Shown here: positions 17,757-41,349 of the stretch, in pieces
How the letters are laid out: every line of letters begins with the position of its first letter
Position numbering within the stretch: position 1 is the stretch's first letter
Source of the DNA: Fibrobacteria bacterium
GTDB lineage: Bacteria; Fibrobacterota; Fibrobacteria; UBA11236
NCBI GenBank assembly: GCA_041746255.1
Contig: JBGTHM010000125.1
Coordinates: 64,114 to 128,113, forward strand
Reading direction: 5' to 3'
DNA: 64,000 nucleotides
Program-made: the position numbers and the translations under genes
The notes under the pieces: generated by a model
What the model was told of the DNA's origin: nothing
Database searches by the model: none
The model's input: only the letters and a program-made list of their open reading frames with translations

Positions 17757-17890
17757 TTCGGATCATTTTTCCGCATCGAGCAGAATCTACCCAGGCATCC
17801 TGCGCCATGGGATCAAATCAACTTGGGGGCAAATTTACCCGCCCAACTTAACATATATGATAAGTTCGAGCGGAATATTTCTTGGGATTA

Positions 17891-17986: not shown

Positions 17987-19894
17987 ATGCCGCTCAAAAC
18001 CTATATCCGCCTTGCCGGCGTAAACGGATTCTTTCCCGGCCCCATCGACTTGCCCCGCCGTGAGAATTGCTATCCGCTGCTGGAAGGCGCGCACTCCGTG
18101 CGCATGTTGCGACAGCGCAGCAACGGATTTACCGGCACCCGCCACCTCCGCTTCCACGAACCTTTTTTCGCCTCCTTTCCCCTGGATAAAGCCTACCCTT
18201 CGTTGATGCAATGCCTGTGCCATAGCGGCACTTTGCCTCTGGTGGAAATTTCGCTGTGGGATTTGGTGGAAGGGAGCTTCGAGGAGGAGCCGAAGGAAAA
18301 ACGGATTTTCCTTTATACGCTGGAAAATGTGAAACTGACCCAGGTGCGCACGCTGATGCGCGTTGCAAAGCTGGACGGAAAATTGCTACAAGCGCGCGTG
18401 GCGATGGTCTATGACAAGGTGACGTGGCTGCATGACGAGGGCTATCTCCTTTTCTGGGATAGCTTGAAGGATACGGGCAAGGAGGAGGCCAAGGAGGAGC
18501 CCGATCGGGGCGACGCGGAACCCGCGCCGGCTCCGGTTAAAAAGGTGGTCGAGGTGTTGCTGCAAAATCCCGTATGGGATTCGACGGAAGTGGGCTTCAA
18601 TGAAGAAGCCACGCTGTCGGTGGAATGCCAATTGCCGGAGGAACATAAAAACCGCAAGCGAGTACAGTTCGTGCTTTTCGCCAAGACCCCGAACGGTCCC
18701 GAGCAAATCGCCAAAGCCGACGGATTCACGGAAAACGGTCGTGCGACTTGTAAGATGCCGGTGTTTAAGCCTCAATATCACGGGAACGGTGAGGCTCCGA
18801 AAGAAGTGGAATATTTTTTCACCGCCAAACATACGCTGTCGGAGCCGTTGGATTCGGGGGCCAAGCCCGAAGGCGTGAAGTCGGTGGATAAGATGGCGGA
18901 ACCGCTGATCGACACGCATGTGGTGGTGGGCGTAACGTTTGGATTCGATTCGAGTTTTCTGCACCCGGACCAGATTCCAAAGTTGAAAGAATTGTGCGAG
19001 AAAATCGGGGCTTGGAGGAAGAGTTATCCCGACGGTAAGATGGCGTTGTTCGGGCATACGGATGCAGTGGGTAAGGAGTCCTACAACAAGGGGCTGTCGG
19101 AGCGGCGGGCGCGTTCGGTTTATGCGTTTTTGATGGGCGATTCGAGCGTGTGGGAGAATTTGCACAAGGAGGAGAATTGGAGTTTCGCCTGCACGCAAGC
19201 TTTGGTGAAGCAGGCGGGTTACGATCCCGGGGCGATTGACGGGTCGGATGGGCCGAAGACGCAAGGGGCGGTGAAGGGTTTTCAGGAATCACAGGGGCTT
19301 AAGGCCGATGGGATTGCGGGACCCAAGACGCGGGAGGCATTGTTTACTGGGTTTCTCGACGCAGTGCCGGAATTCAAGGGTCTGGGCTTGAAGACGAAGA
19401 ATTTTGACAAGGTGGACGGGCAGCCGAATATGGGTTGCAGCGAGTTCAACCGGGTGGAGGTCGTGGAGGGTAGGAGTGAGGCCAACCGGCGGGTAACGGT
19501 TTTGTTGGTGAAATCGAGCCAGACCTTTCCGATGGAGTATCCCTGTAAGCGCGGGAATATCGGGCCGTGCCAGAGTCAGGTAAAGAAGGCGGGAGAGCGG
19601 CGGACTAAGGGGTTCGGGTGTAAGTTTTATGATGGGTTGGTGGTGGAGGCGGTGATTTCACCTTCTGGGAGTCAGACATCGAAACCACAAAATCGCCGGA
19701 TTCGGATTCTGGATTTGGATGGAAACCCCTTACCCGATGCGGGTTTGTGTATGGACAATGGGGATAAATTGTCTCCCGATAACGAGGGCTGGTGTGAACT
19801 GACCCCGGAATACGGGTCCGCTACCGAATTTCACGTGGATACCCAGGCGATCGCAATGTATTGGAATTTGAATAAAAATGAGGGGATAGCTTAA
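17987..19894 (+). CDS. Hcp/TssD (T6SS tube)-like domain fused to Ig-like, OmpA-like (with inserted PG_binding_1) and C-terminal transthyretin-like domains
   Basis: aa 1-160 follow the Vibrio-type Hcp pattern (HSV...G.R.HEPF....LDKA.P.L.Q.L.....L..VEI..W...YTLENV.......V...YDKVTW.H). OmpA motifs FGFDSS, GHTDAVGKESYNKGLSERRA, NRRV. PG-binding motif GYDPGAIDG.DGPKT..AVK.FQ...GL.ADGIAGPKT. No signal peptide. Confidence 0.8.
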   Translation: MPLKTYIRLAGVNGFFPGPIDLPRRENCYPLLEGAHSVRMLRQRSNGFTGTRHLRFHEPFFASFPLDKAYPSLMQCLCHSGTLPLVEISLWDLVEGSFEEEPKEKRIFLYTLENVKLTQVRTLMRVAKLDGKLLQARVAMVYDKVTWLHDEGYLLFWDSLKDTGKEEAKEEPDRGDAEPAPAPVKKVVEVLLQNPVWDSTEVGFNEEATLSVECQLPEEHKNRKRVQFVLFAKTPNGPEQIAKADGFTENGRATCKMPVFKPQYHGNGEAPKEVEYFFTAKHTLSEPLDSGAKPEGVKSVDKMAEPLIDTHVVVGVTFGFDSSFLHPDQIPKLKELCEKIGAWRKSYPDGKMALFGHTDAVGKESYNKGLSERRARSVYAFLMGDSSVWENLHKEENWSFACTQALVKQAGYDPGAIDGSDGPKTQGAVKGFQESQGLKADGIAGPKTREALFTGFLDAVPEFKGLGLKTKNFDKVDGQPNMGCSEFNRVEVVEGRSEANRRVTVLLVKSSQTFPMEYPCKRGNIGPCQSQVKKAGERRTKGFGCKFYDGLVVEAVISPSGSQTSKPQNRRIRILDLDGNPLPDAGLCMDNGDKLSPDNEGWCELTPEYGSATEFHVDTQAIAMYWNLNKNEGIA

Positions 19895-19895
19895 G

Positions 19896-21167
19896 ATGAG
19901 TGAGAAATCCAAATCTTCCAGTTCACGAGTTGAAGTTTTCTCGAATCAGCCTTTTCAGTTGCAAGAGAATCAAAACGATGTCGACGTGGTGGTTATTCAC
20001 AAGCAGGAATTGAAATTCCAAAACCTTTCGGTGGATTCGACCACTCCGAGCCTTACCGTTCAAGTGAATTCGGATGGACGGACAAGGCTTCATTATGTTC
20101 CTGAAACCAAGGTCGCCGGAGAAAGAATATCGATAAAAGGTCCAGATTTGTGTGAAATTTGGTTTCCCCGGCCCGTTAATGAAAATACGGAATTTCTTTT
20201 TTCAGGAATTTCCAAGCCTTTTTCCATGAACATACCTTCGCGTTTCATCAATCCGGCCGACCCGATGTACTTCATGTACGGAGAGCTACCGGGATTTACT
20301 TCTAAGCCGTCGACACCTGCTATTACCCCTTCTTCCATGGGCAAAGTTCCTCCCGGATTGGAGGATTTATTCATTACTGTGGCGGACACCGACAACACAC
20401 TGGTTGCTGGTGAATTCCGCGAGGGGTTGAACCGTGTTGAAGATTTGAGGGAAAAGCAGAAAGGGCTTTTGGAAATATTGTTGTTGAATACCATTTCCAA
20501 TAAAAACTTGGCCGGTGCGGCAGGTCAAGTTATCGACAACTTTGGCTTGCTTTCGGATTTTGCACGTGGCGGAAGATTTTACATCAAAATAACAGATGGA
20601 AAATACTATGTCATTTTCAAGGGATACCCTGGGCTGCGGCGAATCTATACGAGTTCAAGATATCGTTTGGACAAGAATTTCACCAAGTTTTCGATGCTGA
20701 CAATCGCGCAGGGCGTGACGCCTGCCCTGAAATCGGCCATCCCCAGATTGAGTAAAGGGAGTACCATCGGTTTACTATGGGTTGGTAGCACAAATACCTA
20801 TTCCTGGCTGCAGGAGGATGAAAAATTCCTCAGCGATTTATTGATTCAAATGGGATCGGATATAGTTAAGGCGGTGGCAAGTACCATTGCCGCTGCGTTA
20901 ATAATAGCAATCGGAATAGTCTTCACCGGGACGTCCTTGGCGATCTTTACATTAATTATAGGAACAATATTTTTTGGATTTGCTATCGGTATGGGCCTGG
21001 ACATAATCGATAACTGGCTAGGTGTTACTGATATAGTCAAAAAATATGGCAGGAAAATAAGCGCCCCTCTCGCGCCGCTTTGGAGATCCTATATCGATGA
21101 GCCGCTTTCCAGTTTTTTACAAAAGGCAAGTTGGGAAGTCATGCGAATTGATTTGAGGTCGCCATGA
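19896..21167 (+). CDS. Putative Tme-family membrane-disrupting (pore-forming) antibacterial effector
   Basis: C-terminal half has YVIFKGYPGLR, then a DxxK motif (SDIVK, D322), two hydrophobic helices and LDIIDNWLGVTD, the pattern of Tme effectors. Starts 1 nt after the stop of the Hcp fusion. Confidence 0.7.
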   Translation: MSEKSKSSSSRVEVFSNQPFQLQENQNDVDVVVIHKQELKFQNLSVDSTTPSLTVQVNSDGRTRLHYVPETKVAGERISIKGPDLCEIWFPRPVNENTEFLFSGISKPFSMNIPSRFINPADPMYFMYGELPGFTSKPSTPAITPSSMGKVPPGLEDLFITVADTDNTLVAGEFREGLNRVEDLREKQKGLLEILLLNTISNKNLAGAAGQVIDNFGLLSDFARGGRFYIKITDGKYYVIFKGYPGLRRIYTSSRYRLDKNFTKFSMLTIAQGVTPALKSAIPRLSKGSTIGLLWVGSTNTYSWLQEDEKFLSDLLIQMGSDIVKAVASTIAAALIIAIGIVFTGTSLAIFTLIIGTIFFGFAIGMGLDIIDNWLGVTDIVKKYGRKISAPLAPLWRSYIDEPLSSFLQKASWEVMRIDLRSP

Positions 21168-21937
21168 AAGGCTCCTTGCCTGTTGCATTAAGGTCCGAAA
21201 AAGATTTTCGGAATAGCATACGCATCGGAATCATTCCTACTTCGGTGTTTTTTTTGCTATTGCTTTTGTATTACCCTATTTCGATAGCTATGTTTATTTA
21301 TTTTCCGTTCATAATTGCACATATCATTGTTATTTATATATCGAAGGATTCCTTTGGACTGCTAGCCCATCACAGGCTATTTCCTTCCATACTATTTGTG
21401 GCATGGCCTTACCTTTTTTGCTTGTTATACATCGCGTATGCAGGGAAGGCAACGCAATATCATCCGATCTATTTCCCCTCCCTTCTTGCATTGGGAAGCT
21501 TTTCATTTATTTTGACATTCTACTTCGGATTTAAGGATTGCCTGGCATTGGATGAAAAATCCGTTGAAAAACGCCTGAGGTCCGTGGATTGGGAAACAGG
21601 AATTTATGATGTCGAAACCCATTCCCTTGAATCGGTAAATATATTCGGAGTAATAGTTGAAAGCTTTCCGACCTGGAAATTGGTTTACCAGATTGGGTTA
21701 ATCCTCTCCCCGGGTCCAATTATACTTTTTACTGCCAAACACATTTCGGGACACCTCGTATCAATAATTATGGTAGCAGTTGGGTGGGGAGGGGCCATAC
21801 TATTTGGTGGAATATCGATAGAGTTAATCTATGATGCTTGGTTCTTGCGTAAAATGGAAAAAGAAAAAGGCGTTCGACTGGTTTTATCGAATTCTACCCG
21901 TGCAAATGAAATTTTTAAAAAAACTCGGGATGAATGA
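21164..21937 (+). CDS. Polytopic membrane protein, putative cognate immunity protein
   Basis: About 5-6 TM helices, very AT-rich, ATGA overlap with the effector stop. Confidence 0.65.
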   Translation: MKGSLPVALRSEKDFRNSIRIGIIPTSVFFLLLLLYYPISIAMFIYFPFIIAHIIVIYISKDSFGLLAHHRLFPSILFVAWPYLFCLLYIAYAGKATQYHPIYFPSLLALGSFSFILTFYFGFKDCLALDEKSVEKRLRSVDWETGIYDVETHSLESVNIFGVIVESFPTWKLVYQIGLILSPGPIILFTAKHISGHLVSIIMVAVGWGGAILFGGISIELIYDAWFLRKMEKEKGVRLVLSNSTRANEIFKKTRDE

Positions 21938-40449: not shown

Positions 40450-41349
40450 TCAGACCTTCTCCACTTGGCCTTTGCCGAGAATACCTTCGGGTTTGAAAAG
40501 AAGGATGACGATGAGGATGAGAAAGGCGATGGCGTCTCGATAGGTGGAGGACCCATAGCCCGCCACCATCACCTCGGCCATGCCCAGAATCAATCCTCCC
40601 AATAGCGCGCCGGTGATATTGCCGATACCTCCCAAAACGGCGGCCACGAATGCTTTGAGGCCGGTCATGATACCCATAAGCGGATCGATGCCCGGAAGGT
40701 TGAGTGAGACCAGGATTCCGGCCGCCGCCGCCAAAGAAGATCCAATGCCGAACGTCAGGGCGATAATGGCATTGGTATTGATGCCCATCAATTTGGCCGC
40801 ATCCAGATTGAAGGAAACGGCTCGCATGGCCGTTCCGGTGCGCGTATAATGAATGAAAAGATTGAGCAGTACCATCAAGGCCAGAGCCACGCCCAAAACG
40901 ATTACCTGCTGATTGGTGATAGTGACGCCCCAGAAAAGCATGCGCCGCTCTTCGATGATTTGCGGGAAGAATTTGGGGTCGGCGCCGAAAAGCAGTTGAC
41001 TGCCGTTTTCCAGAAACAGGGAGACGCCAATAGCGATGATGAGCATGGTGAGTCGCGGAGCCCTTCGCACCGGGCGATACGCGAAGCGTTCAATGGCCAT
41101 GCCGATGAGACCGCAAACGATCATGGCCCCCAGCATCACCACCGTGGCTTCCAAAAAGGCATTGCCGAGAAAGCCATGCACGCGCAGGGAGATGTAATAA
41201 CCCGTGAAGGCCCCGAGCATATAGACGTCGCCGTGGGCGAAATTGATTAGGCGCAGAATTCCGTAAACCATGGTATAGCCGAGCGCCACCAAGGCGTATA
41301 TGCTGCCTAGCGACAGGCCGTTGACTATTTGTTGGAGGAAGGTTTCCAT
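40450..41349 (-). CDS. livH: Branched-chain amino acid ABC transporter permease
   Basis: GSIYALVALGYTMVYG..INFAHG, KAFVAAVLGGIG. Confidence 0.95.
   Translation of the reverse strand: METFLQQIVNGLSLGSIYALVALGYTMVYGILRLINFAHGDVYMLGAFTGYYISLRVHGFLGNAFLEATVVMLGAMIVCGLIGMAIERFAYRPVRRAPRLTMLIIAIGVSLFLENGSQLLFGADPKFFPQIIEERRMLFWGVTITNQQVIVLGVALALMVLLNLFIHYTRTGTAMRAVSFNLDAAKLMGINTNAIIALTFGIGSSLAAAAGILVSLNLPGIDPLMGIMTGLKAFVAAVLGGIGNITGALLGGLILGMAEVMVAGYGSSTYRDAIAFLILIVILLFKPEGILGKGQVEKV

Follow-up and report, generated by a model that had tools for sequence, protein, structure and literature searches.

A probable Hcp-type secreted adaptor with a peptidoglycan-binding trunk, a Tme-family cargo and a candidate immunity protein in a Fibrobacterota genome

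This study concerns a stretch of 64,000 nucleotides (nt) from a Fibrobacteria bacterium (GenBank assembly GCA_041746255.1, contig JBGTHM010000125.1, positions 64,114 to 128,113), here called the window, and in it a locus of three consecutive genes whose products we designate P1, P2 and P3. P1 joins an Hcp domain, as found in the tube of a type VI secretion system (T6SS), to a peptidoglycan-binding trunk and a short tail. P2 is assigned by profile comparison to the Tme effector family, and P3 is a candidate immunity protein.

Gene order and the domains of P1

The three genes lie on the forward strand:

17987-19894, + strand: P1, 635 amino acids (aa), from the list of open reading frames (ORFs)
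19896-21167, + strand: P2, 423 aa, proposed cargo effector
21164-21937, + strand: P3, 257 aa, proposed immunity protein

A single nucleotide separates P1 from P2, with the stop codon TAA of P1 at 19892-19894, a G at 19895 and the ATG of P2 at 19896 (...GAGGGGATAGCT TAA G ATG), and the ORF coordinates place P2 and P3 in an ATGA overlap at 21164-21167. Coordinates and junction sequence bear out the initial annotation of this DNA, which had described three tightly coupled genes with a 1-nt gap followed by an ATGA overlap. The start of P2 is preceded at 10 nt by a Shine-Dalgarno-like GAGGGG, and an in-frame stop codon stands three codons 5' of it; this hexamer and this stop together identify P2 as a separate gene.

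P1 comprises an N-terminal Hcp domain, a trunk of several modules and a variable tail:

17987-18496, + strand: Hcp (TssD) domain, residues 1-170, from Pfam PF05638 and a profile comparison with Hcp structures
18539-18886, + strand: beta-sandwich (Ig/macroglobulin-like), first part of the trunk, residues 185-300, from AlphaFold2 (AF2) and Foldseek
18917-19510, + strand: OmpA-like peptidoglycan-binding domain, residues 311-508, interrupted by PG_binding_1
19184-19360, + strand: PG_binding_1 domain nested in the OmpA-like domain, residues 400-458, from PF01471 and AF2 helices
19511-19648, + strand: end of the trunk, residues 509-554, with C520, C528 and C545, closing at the YDGLVVE junction
19649-19894, + strand: variable tail of 81 aa plus the stop codon, residues 555-635, proposed docking platform for P2

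That the N-terminus of P1 is an Hcp homologue, as first proposed from the bare sequence, was supported both by Pfam and by profile comparison. The Pfam model T6SS_HCP (PF05638) matches residues 18-149 at 26.0 bits against a cut-off of 23.5, and at 29.9 bits in the genome search; the NCBIfam TssD model (TIGR03344) scores 34.9 bits, under its cut-off of 58.9. A profile of seven sequences, namely four paralogues from this genome, two proteins from a genome of the same genus and one from a genome of another bacterial family (G027), matches the Hcp structure 4hkh over its full length with an E-value of 6.7e-29 (residues 1-165 against 1-158), and further matches were obtained to 5mxn (2.6e-15), 3he1 (1.5e-13) and 6a2v (1.8e-13). 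The more Hcp-like G027 row strengthens this profile. In the G027 homologue, a protein of 1002 aa, an Hcp domain scoring 63.8 bits is joined to the same OmpA and PG_binding_1 domains, which ties the weakly scoring Hcp domains of the P1 type to the mainstream Hcp family.

The wall-binding domains attributed to P1 were likewise recovered, the Pfam OmpA model (PF00691) matching residues 317-384 at 34.7 bits over profile positions 1-66 of 98 and PG_binding_1 (PF01471) matching residues 406-452 at 52.7 bits. An AF2 model built on a 52-row alignment has a predicted local distance difference test score (pLDDT) of 90-98 over residues 185-555, including an all-beta sandwich at residues 185-300 (pLDDT 90-96). 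In this model the PG_binding_1 helices (residues 400-458) form an insert within the OmpA-like domain, whose closing strand, carrying the near-invariant N500-R501-R502-V503, sits after those helices in both alignment and model. Foldseek relates the OmpA-like domain to the C-domains of OprF, Pal and OmpA (probability 1.00) and the sandwich to MG and Ig-like domains, for example 2p9r. Four cysteines (C484, C520, C528 and C545) are nearly invariant in the 52 sequences, and D359 and R374 are conserved; by analogy with OmpA-like structures, the latter two may bind diaminopimelate. P1 has neither a signal peptide nor a hydrophobic segment. The 465 aa that follow its Hcp domain exceed the C-terminal extension of more than 60-70 aa by which specialised Hcps are recognised (PMC8262886; 10.1101/2021.10.07.463556), and the modules recognised in them are peptidoglycan-binding ones only, followed by the 81-aa tail, which matches no family. 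Pfam searches at E-values up to 10 with the tail, its counterpart in the metagenome locus L035 described below, P2 residues 1-135, the trunk sandwich and the cysteine-rich region returned chance-level rows only.

The trunk sandwich also occurs elsewhere. In P0019, a Tme-type relative of P2 with 579 aa, residues 62-141 are homologous to it (18527-18886; pairwise E-value 6e-9), so that the sandwich is a mobile module of T6SS effectors. It shows no significant similarity to P0005.

The T6SS of the genome and the trunk family

T6SS core families (PF05638, PF05943, PF05954, PF05488, PF05936, PF06812 and PF12790) were searched genome-wide, and the Hcp domain of P1 was the sole match on the contig that holds the window (C125), in keeping with the initial remark that the window contains no vgrG, PAAR or tss core gene. 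The accompanying view of the locus as lying apart from a T6SS did not hold for the genome. TssB, TssC, TssL (DotU), TssM (IcmF), TssK and TssA are encoded on contig C62, a canonical Hcp with TssE, TssF and TssG on C26, and VgrG on C97; with these core genes present elsewhere in the genome, a stand-alone system independent of any T6SS is ruled out. Contig C62 ends at 41005, just past tssC, and hcp occupies 8083-8571 of C26, a contig of 8685; the two probably adjoin, which would give one cluster of the order tssK...tssL-tssM...tssA...tssB-tssC-hcp-tssE-tssF-tssG.

PF05638 identifies five places in the genome. One is the canonical 162-aa Hcp on C26 (112.6 bits), and the other four are long ORFs on C125 (P1 itself), C80, C123 and C89, which score 29.9-31.3 bits in the genome search and 26.0-27.0 bits in the protein scan (cut-off 23.5). 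All four long proteins contain Hcp, OmpA and PG_binding_1 domains. The three paralogues are 77-85% identical to P1 over the whole alignment, with all but two of the invariant columns falling within residues 1-554, and beyond ...FYDGLVVE (residue 554) the sequences are unrelated. At the DNA level, an identity of 83-87% extends from 17977 to 19647-19649 in all three comparisons and stops at codon 554/555. The C-terminal ends measure 81 (P1), 97, 350 and 556 aa, the longest containing HELAH, and the downstream genes differ at all four loci. The proposal that paralogous carriers would be followed by different genes is therefore borne out four times in this genome. The further statement that Hcp is here not fused to a toxin applies to P1 itself; it fails for the family, since two paralogues possess C-terminal domains of 350 and 556 aa and relatives of the trunk end in toxin-type domains. 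The C-terminal domains of the C89 and C123 paralogues gave no sequence match in the PDB. Judged by this anatomy, with its fixed recombination junction, the four paralogues constitute a polymorphic toxin family.

The C80 paralogue (651 aa, with the 97-aa tail) is followed by a WG-repeat protein (226 aa; C80:7153-7833, - strand). Farther along the same contig lies a 1345-aa protein (C80:2315-6352, - strand) with a weak match to a type IX secretion system sorting domain, 19.6 bits against a cut-off of 27. In a genome of the same genus, every one of the Hcp-trunk paralogues is cut off by the end of a contig, which is what a repeated trunk would lead one to expect.

Across 40 related genomes, P1 residues ~165-555 are matched at about 50% identity in ORFs of 570-1375 aa, often in multiple copies (19 in G006). 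With the present genome included, 27 of 41 genomes, a set containing the unpublished genome G021, encode TssC. Each of the 14 TssC-negative genomes is without any P1 match at E <=1e-5, and the 15 genomes in which P1 is matched strongly (E <1e-30) are TssC-positive without exception, the match in one of them (G001) covering residues 1-311 only. Six trunk loci in these relatives are surrounded by housekeeping genes, with small unknown ORFs downstream. The nearest relatives of P1, at 74-76% identity, come from two records (L012 and L013) titled 'uncultured Bifidobacteriales bacterium'; this title is at odds with the source names of the homologues, which indicate Fibrobacterota, and the records probably represent a mislabelled bin.

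A protein database yielded 139 trunk homologues at E <=1e-5, and the counts that follow rest on the 120 that were listed. Source names include Fibrobacteres or Fibrobacteria in 3 cases, and a precomputed Hcp domain is present in 4. Most of the other complete homologues start with a short leader, M-x-x-DPF...IF...GGxGR, followed by an acidic, proline-rich linker. In proteins P0154-P0216 and at L035:4473-5984, where this leader occupies the place that Hcp has in P1, DPF is often repeated and a Glu/Pro-rich linker comes after. Its position suggests that the leader may be a T6SS loading signal, and we know of no described motif like it.

The junction motif is found in 96 of the 120 homologues, with remainders of 83-759 aa that fall into 25 BLAST clusters, P1's remainder of 83 aa being the shortest and a singleton. 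Ends recognised among the trunk relatives include Tle1-like phospholipase, NlpC/P60 and chitinase/lysozyme-like domains; a CHAP match on one relative stayed below its cut-off (21.3 against 26 bits). All recognised ends belong to types with the wall or the membrane as their target, which would fit a scaffold that binds peptidoglycan. P1 belongs to a polymorphic family that is large and undescribed, from a phylum that has received little study, and its 25 C-terminal types in 96 proteins, mostly of unknown function, are a source of new antibacterial domains.

The cargo, its candidate immunity protein and the docking tail

Neither P2 nor P3 matches a Pfam or NCBIfam family, P3 giving nothing at E <=1. 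The AF2 model of P2 (pLDDT 76.6) consists of a beta-sandwich at residues 10-130, a beta-hairpin with helices at 227-281 and long helices at 287-417. An exhaustive search with HMMER yielded 299 relatives at E <=0.001, of which 63 reach <=1e-10, and the part they share, usually C-terminal, covers residues ~205-410 of P2 (nt 20508-21125), which we designate its Tme domain; between it and the N-terminal sandwich lies an alpha/beta region. Among 30 relatives scanned, three are VgrG or VgrG-PAAR proteins with the domain at their end, two contain LysM and 25 are without a family.

The Tme family is defined by a C-terminal domain with a near-invariant DxxK, then a transmembrane helix, and a flanking Asp; fusions to PAAR, VgrG, MIX and ImpA have been reported (PMC7046647). 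P2 presents the same elements in the same order, with D322-I-V-K325, a hydrophobic stretch at 319-372 and D369/D372. Of 63 aligned sequences, 46 retain D322, 53 retain K325 and 54 retain D372, and a block G235...G243...R248...Y256 is better conserved still (58-62 of 63). A profile of P2 and 62 relatives found one match on the Escherichia coli LF82 chromosome, LF82_RS14665 (E-value 2.1e-42, 146 bits, residues 146-378), an annotated PAAR protein encoded between tssA and a DUF1240 gene in a T6SS cluster. Pairwise BLASTP between P2 and this protein gives an E-value of 1e-5 at 25% identity over 194 aa, and D322, K325 and D372 of P2 align with D301, K304 and D347. These are the residues named for an LF82 effector listed among the Tme effectors, a PAAR-Tme protein that is paired with a DUF1240 protein and is reported to be toxic from the periplasm, with D301 essential (preprint 10.64898/2026.10.08.757527); the matching description suggests that LF82_RS14665 is the LF82_440 of that preprint. 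With this LF82 protein as the reference, rather than the sequence of Tme1 itself, the profile evidence makes P2 a member of the Tme family, and the early description of P2 as Tme-like stands.

Other searches with P2 added little. A word-index homologue search returned the query alone, tblastn did not find P2 in a plasmid collection, Foldseek gave no match to the model at E <=0.001, and the best Z from VIA-align against 48,161 chains, 7.2, did not rise above background, which leaves the N-terminal sandwich and the helical end of P2 without an assigned fold. Language-model look-alikes of P2 and P3 fall into unnamed clusters, commonest in Pseudomonadota, and serve as leads only. On a metagenome contig (L036; 513-1699, 2692-3345), a 259-aa Tme-type gene is overlapped by a gene of 135 aa with three hydrophobic regions; this pair is flanked by a Sel1-repeat gene on the upstream side and by a pesticin/lysozyme-like gene on the downstream side, and the whole looks like an effector island.

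Immunity proteins downstream of Tme genes have three to six transmembrane helices and are mostly DUF1240-like, with very diverse sequences (PMC7046647). The hydropathy profile of P3 peaks at ~17-68 (overlapping windows), at 72-94 and at 173-222, and about five to six helices were counted by eye, including one at 100-122 that the hydropathy scan did not flag. Its several predicted transmembrane helices and its ATGA overlap with P2 agree with the downstream membrane immunity protein that had been proposed, and by position and topology P3 is a candidate for the immunity role.

Evidence that P1 and P2 belong together comes from the tail. Despite 77-85% identity between the proteins, the tail of P1 shows no relation to those of the three paralogues, and it is absent from the other 119 listed trunk homologues. 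It is homologous to the tail of a trunk protein in the metagenome locus L035, found in a search based on a four-row alignment. That protein (503 aa, OmpA and PG_binding_1, without Hcp) is 48% identical to P1 residues 192-635, tail included, and in the alignment of the two tails RRLRIVDVNGDP...EGWCEV stands against RRIRILDLDGNP...EGWCEL. One nucleotide past its stop codon begins a homologue of P2, the closest relative of P2 in that metagenome scan, with 36% identity over residues 7-399; this gene runs off the contig, which ends before any third gene.

Complex prediction with the tail (residues 549-635) and P2 residues 1-160 scored 0.70 against 0.08 for the best control, on alignments of 2 and 12 rows, for which the calibration holds only roughly. 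In that calibration, 116 of 157 solved complexes attained the 0.70 mark, as did 2 of 215 mismatched pairs. Three runs shared at least 83% of contacts, with a partner pLDDT of at least 69, and the predicted interface is a strand pairing of P1 residues 570-577 and 610-619 with P2 residues 16-35. Prediction and conservation in L035 support a model in which the tail of P1 docks the N-terminus of P2, and so favour the adaptor-like tip with a separate cargo that the initial annotation had suggested.

Base composition changes along the locus: the trunk has a GC content of 0.56, the tail of 0.488, P2 of 0.447 and P3 of 0.395, compared with 0.531 for the window. Another ORF follows P3:

22090-22986, + strand: ORF4, 298 aa, with a signal-peptide-like N-terminus and a GC content of 0.425

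Its one Pfam match is a weak, chance-level RHS_repeat (E-value 0.09). The tail, P2, P3 and ORF4 are each single-copy in the genome. In what we consider the best explanation, the tail, P2 and P3, perhaps with ORF4, would form a low-GC cassette attached to the trunk at the YDGLVVE junction, and ORF4 may be part of this import, either as an accessory protein or as an orphan immunity gene.

Upstream of P1 lies a palindrome that recurs in the genome:

17844-17867, no strand assigned: 24-bp palindrome, candidate operator, 120-143 nt upstream of the P1 start
C80:6488, C80:9960, C89:30715, C123:9274, C123:14214, C41:1982 and C56:5949: palindrome copies from the genome scan
C73:3738, C73:36845, C102:77794, C116:6861, C116:7428, C8:41047 and C96:5948: palindrome copies from the genome scan

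In the window it reads CAACTTA-N10-TAAGTTC; other copies read GAACTTA..CAT..ATG..TAAGTTC, with the consensus GAACTTA[GT]CAT..ATG.TAAGTTC. The genome scan returned 26 matches at two substitutions or fewer, 15 of them with the CAT..ATG core. The palindrome is conserved upstream of all four Hcp-OmpA-PG_binding_1 paralogues; a Tae4 amidase effector gene (C80:6739-7191, Pfam 71.6 bits) has one copy about 230 nt upstream, and others adjoin several unknown ORFs, possibly further effectors. The same scan found no copy beside the T6SS core clusters or VgrG. In the window the palindrome overlaps a sigma-70-like match at 17834-17861, in a region where promoter-like matches are no commoner than in shuffles. 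From this distribution, the palindrome may be the operator of an effector regulon and could help to list the whole effector set of this organism.

Interpretation and relation to known systems

We consider it probable that P1 is a secreted adaptor of the Hcp type, with a peptidoglycan-binding trunk and a docking tail, and that it serves a T6SS together with a Tme cargo, P2, and a membrane immunity candidate, P3. The Hcp domain would put P1 into or onto the tube fired by the single T6SS of the genome, the trunk would bind peptidoglycan in the periplasm of the attacked cell, and the 81-aa tail would hold the N-terminal beta-sandwich of P2. P2 would then disrupt the inner membrane from the periplasm, and P3, translationally coupled to P2, would protect the producer. 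The other three paralogues and many of the relatives would carry other toxins at the same junction.

Several points weigh against this interpretation. The locus is known from sequence and models alone. In those models, residues 1-170, where the alignment is shallow, and the tail of P1 have a pLDDT below 50, so that the model lends structural support to neither fold; the 465-aa extension on the Hcp is a further difficulty, as it would have to be accommodated by the tube. Genome-wide, the PAAR and TssJ family models have no match, and the co-occurrence of P1 with TssC is in part trivial, owing to the Hcp in the query, and comes from related genomes that cannot count as independent. The search of 40 related genomes did not recover P2, which means that the pairing is not lineage-wide; the conservation of tail with cargo amounts to two of two cases, and the complex alignments are thin. 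P3 has no detectable relative, a word-index search having found P3 alone, and it is not a DUF1240 protein, as it has no Pfam match and BLASTP against the LF82 DUF1240 protein gave an E-value of 2.6. Tmi sequences are described as very diverse (PMC7046647), so dissimilarity to DUF1240 is compatible with an immunity role.

P1 and P2 might instead be independent T6SS effectors that share an operon, P1 acting on its own, for instance as a toxin of the Tox-OmpA kind that binds peptidoglycan without catalysis, and P2 being loaded via canonical Hcp or VgrG. A role as non-catalytic toxins has been proposed for the OmpA domains of polymorphic toxin systems (PMC3482391), other Tme proteins are described as loaded through PAAR, VgrG, MIX or RIX (PMC7046647, PMC10435454), and AF2 models the tail with low confidence. 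However, conservation lies in the OmpA-PG_binding_1 trunk, to which 25 kinds of C-terminus are attached, known toxins among them, and this marks the trunk as a scaffold and not as the payload. The tail, moreover, accompanies the P2 type in L035, and the complex prediction passes its controls. We regard two independent effectors as unlikely.

Extensions of TagL and TssL are known as peptidoglycan anchors of T6SS membrane complexes, and the Hcp-OmpA-PG_binding_1 proteins could by analogy be envelope or anchoring components, not secreted weapons, that bind the cell surface or the T6SS to the producer's own peptidoglycan, with P2 and P3 as ordinary membrane proteins. OmpA-like and peptidoglycan-binding domains are mentioned as anchors of T6SS membrane complexes in other bacteria (PMC3482391), and the TssL of this genome shows a DotU domain only. 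Against an anchor stand the sharp junction and unrelated C-termini of the four paralogues, the Tle1-like, NlpC/P60 and chitinase-like ends of relatives, the absence from P1 of a signal peptide or hydrophobic segment, and the P2 domain itself, which stands at the end of VgrG proteins and has a characterised toxin as a homologue; this account seems to us very improbable. Still less credit is due to the notion that P1 and P2 are the mutation-split, decaying halves of a once-fused Hcp-trunk-Tme gene, which the 1-nt spacing and the lengths would suit (904 and 1110 aa in the paralogues with fused C-terminal domains, 1058 aa for P1 plus P2) but which we reject on the L035 arrangement, where tail, stop, single nucleotide and ATG are kept at 36-48% protein identity, on the start of P2 with its own GAGGGG and upstream stop, both ORFs being intact, and on the count of 0 of 120 listed trunk homologues with a P2-like domain (E <=1).

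The trunk could also have a wider meaning. Tentatively, and with less assurance than for the locus itself, we suggest that the trunk may represent a new class of T6SS effector in the Fibrobacterota, a scaffold for periplasmic retention, on the victim's peptidoglycan, of toxins directed at wall and membrane, in which both the N-terminal loading device (Hcp or the ~40-aa 'DPF...IF...GGxGR' leader) and the payload at the junction (a fused toxin or a docking tail) are interchangeable; in that case P1 would be the first Hcp-type secreted adaptor. The placing of a peptidoglycan-binding scaffold between delivery domain and payload suggests that effectors can be retained in the victim's periplasm, where Tme, lipase and amidase payloads act. 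Loading of T6SS effectors is understood mainly for VgrG, PAAR and small cargo inside the Hcp ring; the locus would add Hcp as the apparent carrier of a separately encoded toxin, by way of a dedicated tail, and a Tme/Tmi-type pair outside the Proteobacteria.

Specialised Hcp effectors, Hcp-ET1 to Hcp-ET5, occur in the Enterobacteriaceae, and their primary paper is Ma et al. 2017. They are cited in PMC8262886 and PMC11148199, and specialised Hcps are described as common, with few tested (PMC8262886; 10.1101/2021.10.07.463556). P1 resembles the Hcp-ETs in its N-terminal Hcp and long extension, in being encoded at orphan loci away from the T6SS cluster, and in having ends that vary and small genes downstream. 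It differs in that the Hcp-ET toxin directly follows Hcp, whereas the P1 family has between them a conserved module of about 385 aa (sandwich, OmpA with PG_binding_1, four cysteines), and in that P1 ends in a short tail, proposed for docking, with the toxin in a separate gene and a host that is not an enterobacterium.

RIX secreted adaptors of the Vibrionaceae are encoded in three-gene operons of adaptor, cargo effector and immunity gene (Kanarek et al. 2023, PMC10435454). The same order is met at P1-P2-P3, and a trunk-tail gene followed by a P2 homologue is found again in L035. As in the RIX operons described there, a delivery-domain gene without a toxin, with a C-terminal platform (proposed in the case of P1), precedes a cargo effector and an immunity gene at an orphan locus, and in the RIX family, too, the same delivery domain can be fused directly to toxins. 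In contrast to RIX, the delivery domain is Hcp (or, in relatives, the short DPF leader) and is followed by a peptidoglycan-binding trunk; a TTR platform is found in some RIX adaptors, and the platform of P1 is a proposal from sequence comparison and modelling. P1 would by this analogy work like a RIX-type adaptor, but it cannot be filed as a RIX protein because its N-terminus is an Hcp domain.

P2 and P3 share with the Tme/Tmi pairs (Tme1 and Tme2 of Vibrio parahaemolyticus, and the LF82 pair) the C-terminal DxxK, the hydrophobic helix region, the conserved Asp and a downstream gene for a protein with multiple transmembrane helices, and relatives of P2, like known Tme proteins, are fused to VgrG or PAAR. 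Unlike known Tme proteins, P2 has its own N-terminal beta-sandwich and is without PAAR, MIX, RIX or VgrG; unlike the LF82 immunity protein, P3 has 257 aa and is not DUF1240. A 2020 survey placed the Tme family almost only in Proteobacteria (PMC7046647), and the host of P2 lies outside that phylum. As for the trunk, an account of polymorphic toxins lists PG_binding_1 and LysM as accessory domains and Tox-OmpA as a C-terminal one, some of these toxins having an N-terminal Hcp (Zhang et al. 2012, PMC3482391). P1 resembles them in that its OmpA-like and PG_binding_1 domains lie inside a polypeptide that would be secreted. There, OmpA at the extreme C-terminus is the presumed toxin of PVC-delivered proteins, whereas in P1 OmpA and PG_binding_1 form the invariant middle trunk.

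A limited literature search found neither an Hcp-OmpA-PG_binding_1 architecture nor T6SS effectors from Fibrobacterota, although supplementary tables could list such proteins. The initial annotation had not recognised the architecture as characterised; the logic behind it is already in print (PMC8262886, PMC10435454). Each part of the locus is known and the combination is new, and the locus is best described not as a new system but as a variant of T6SS effector logic.

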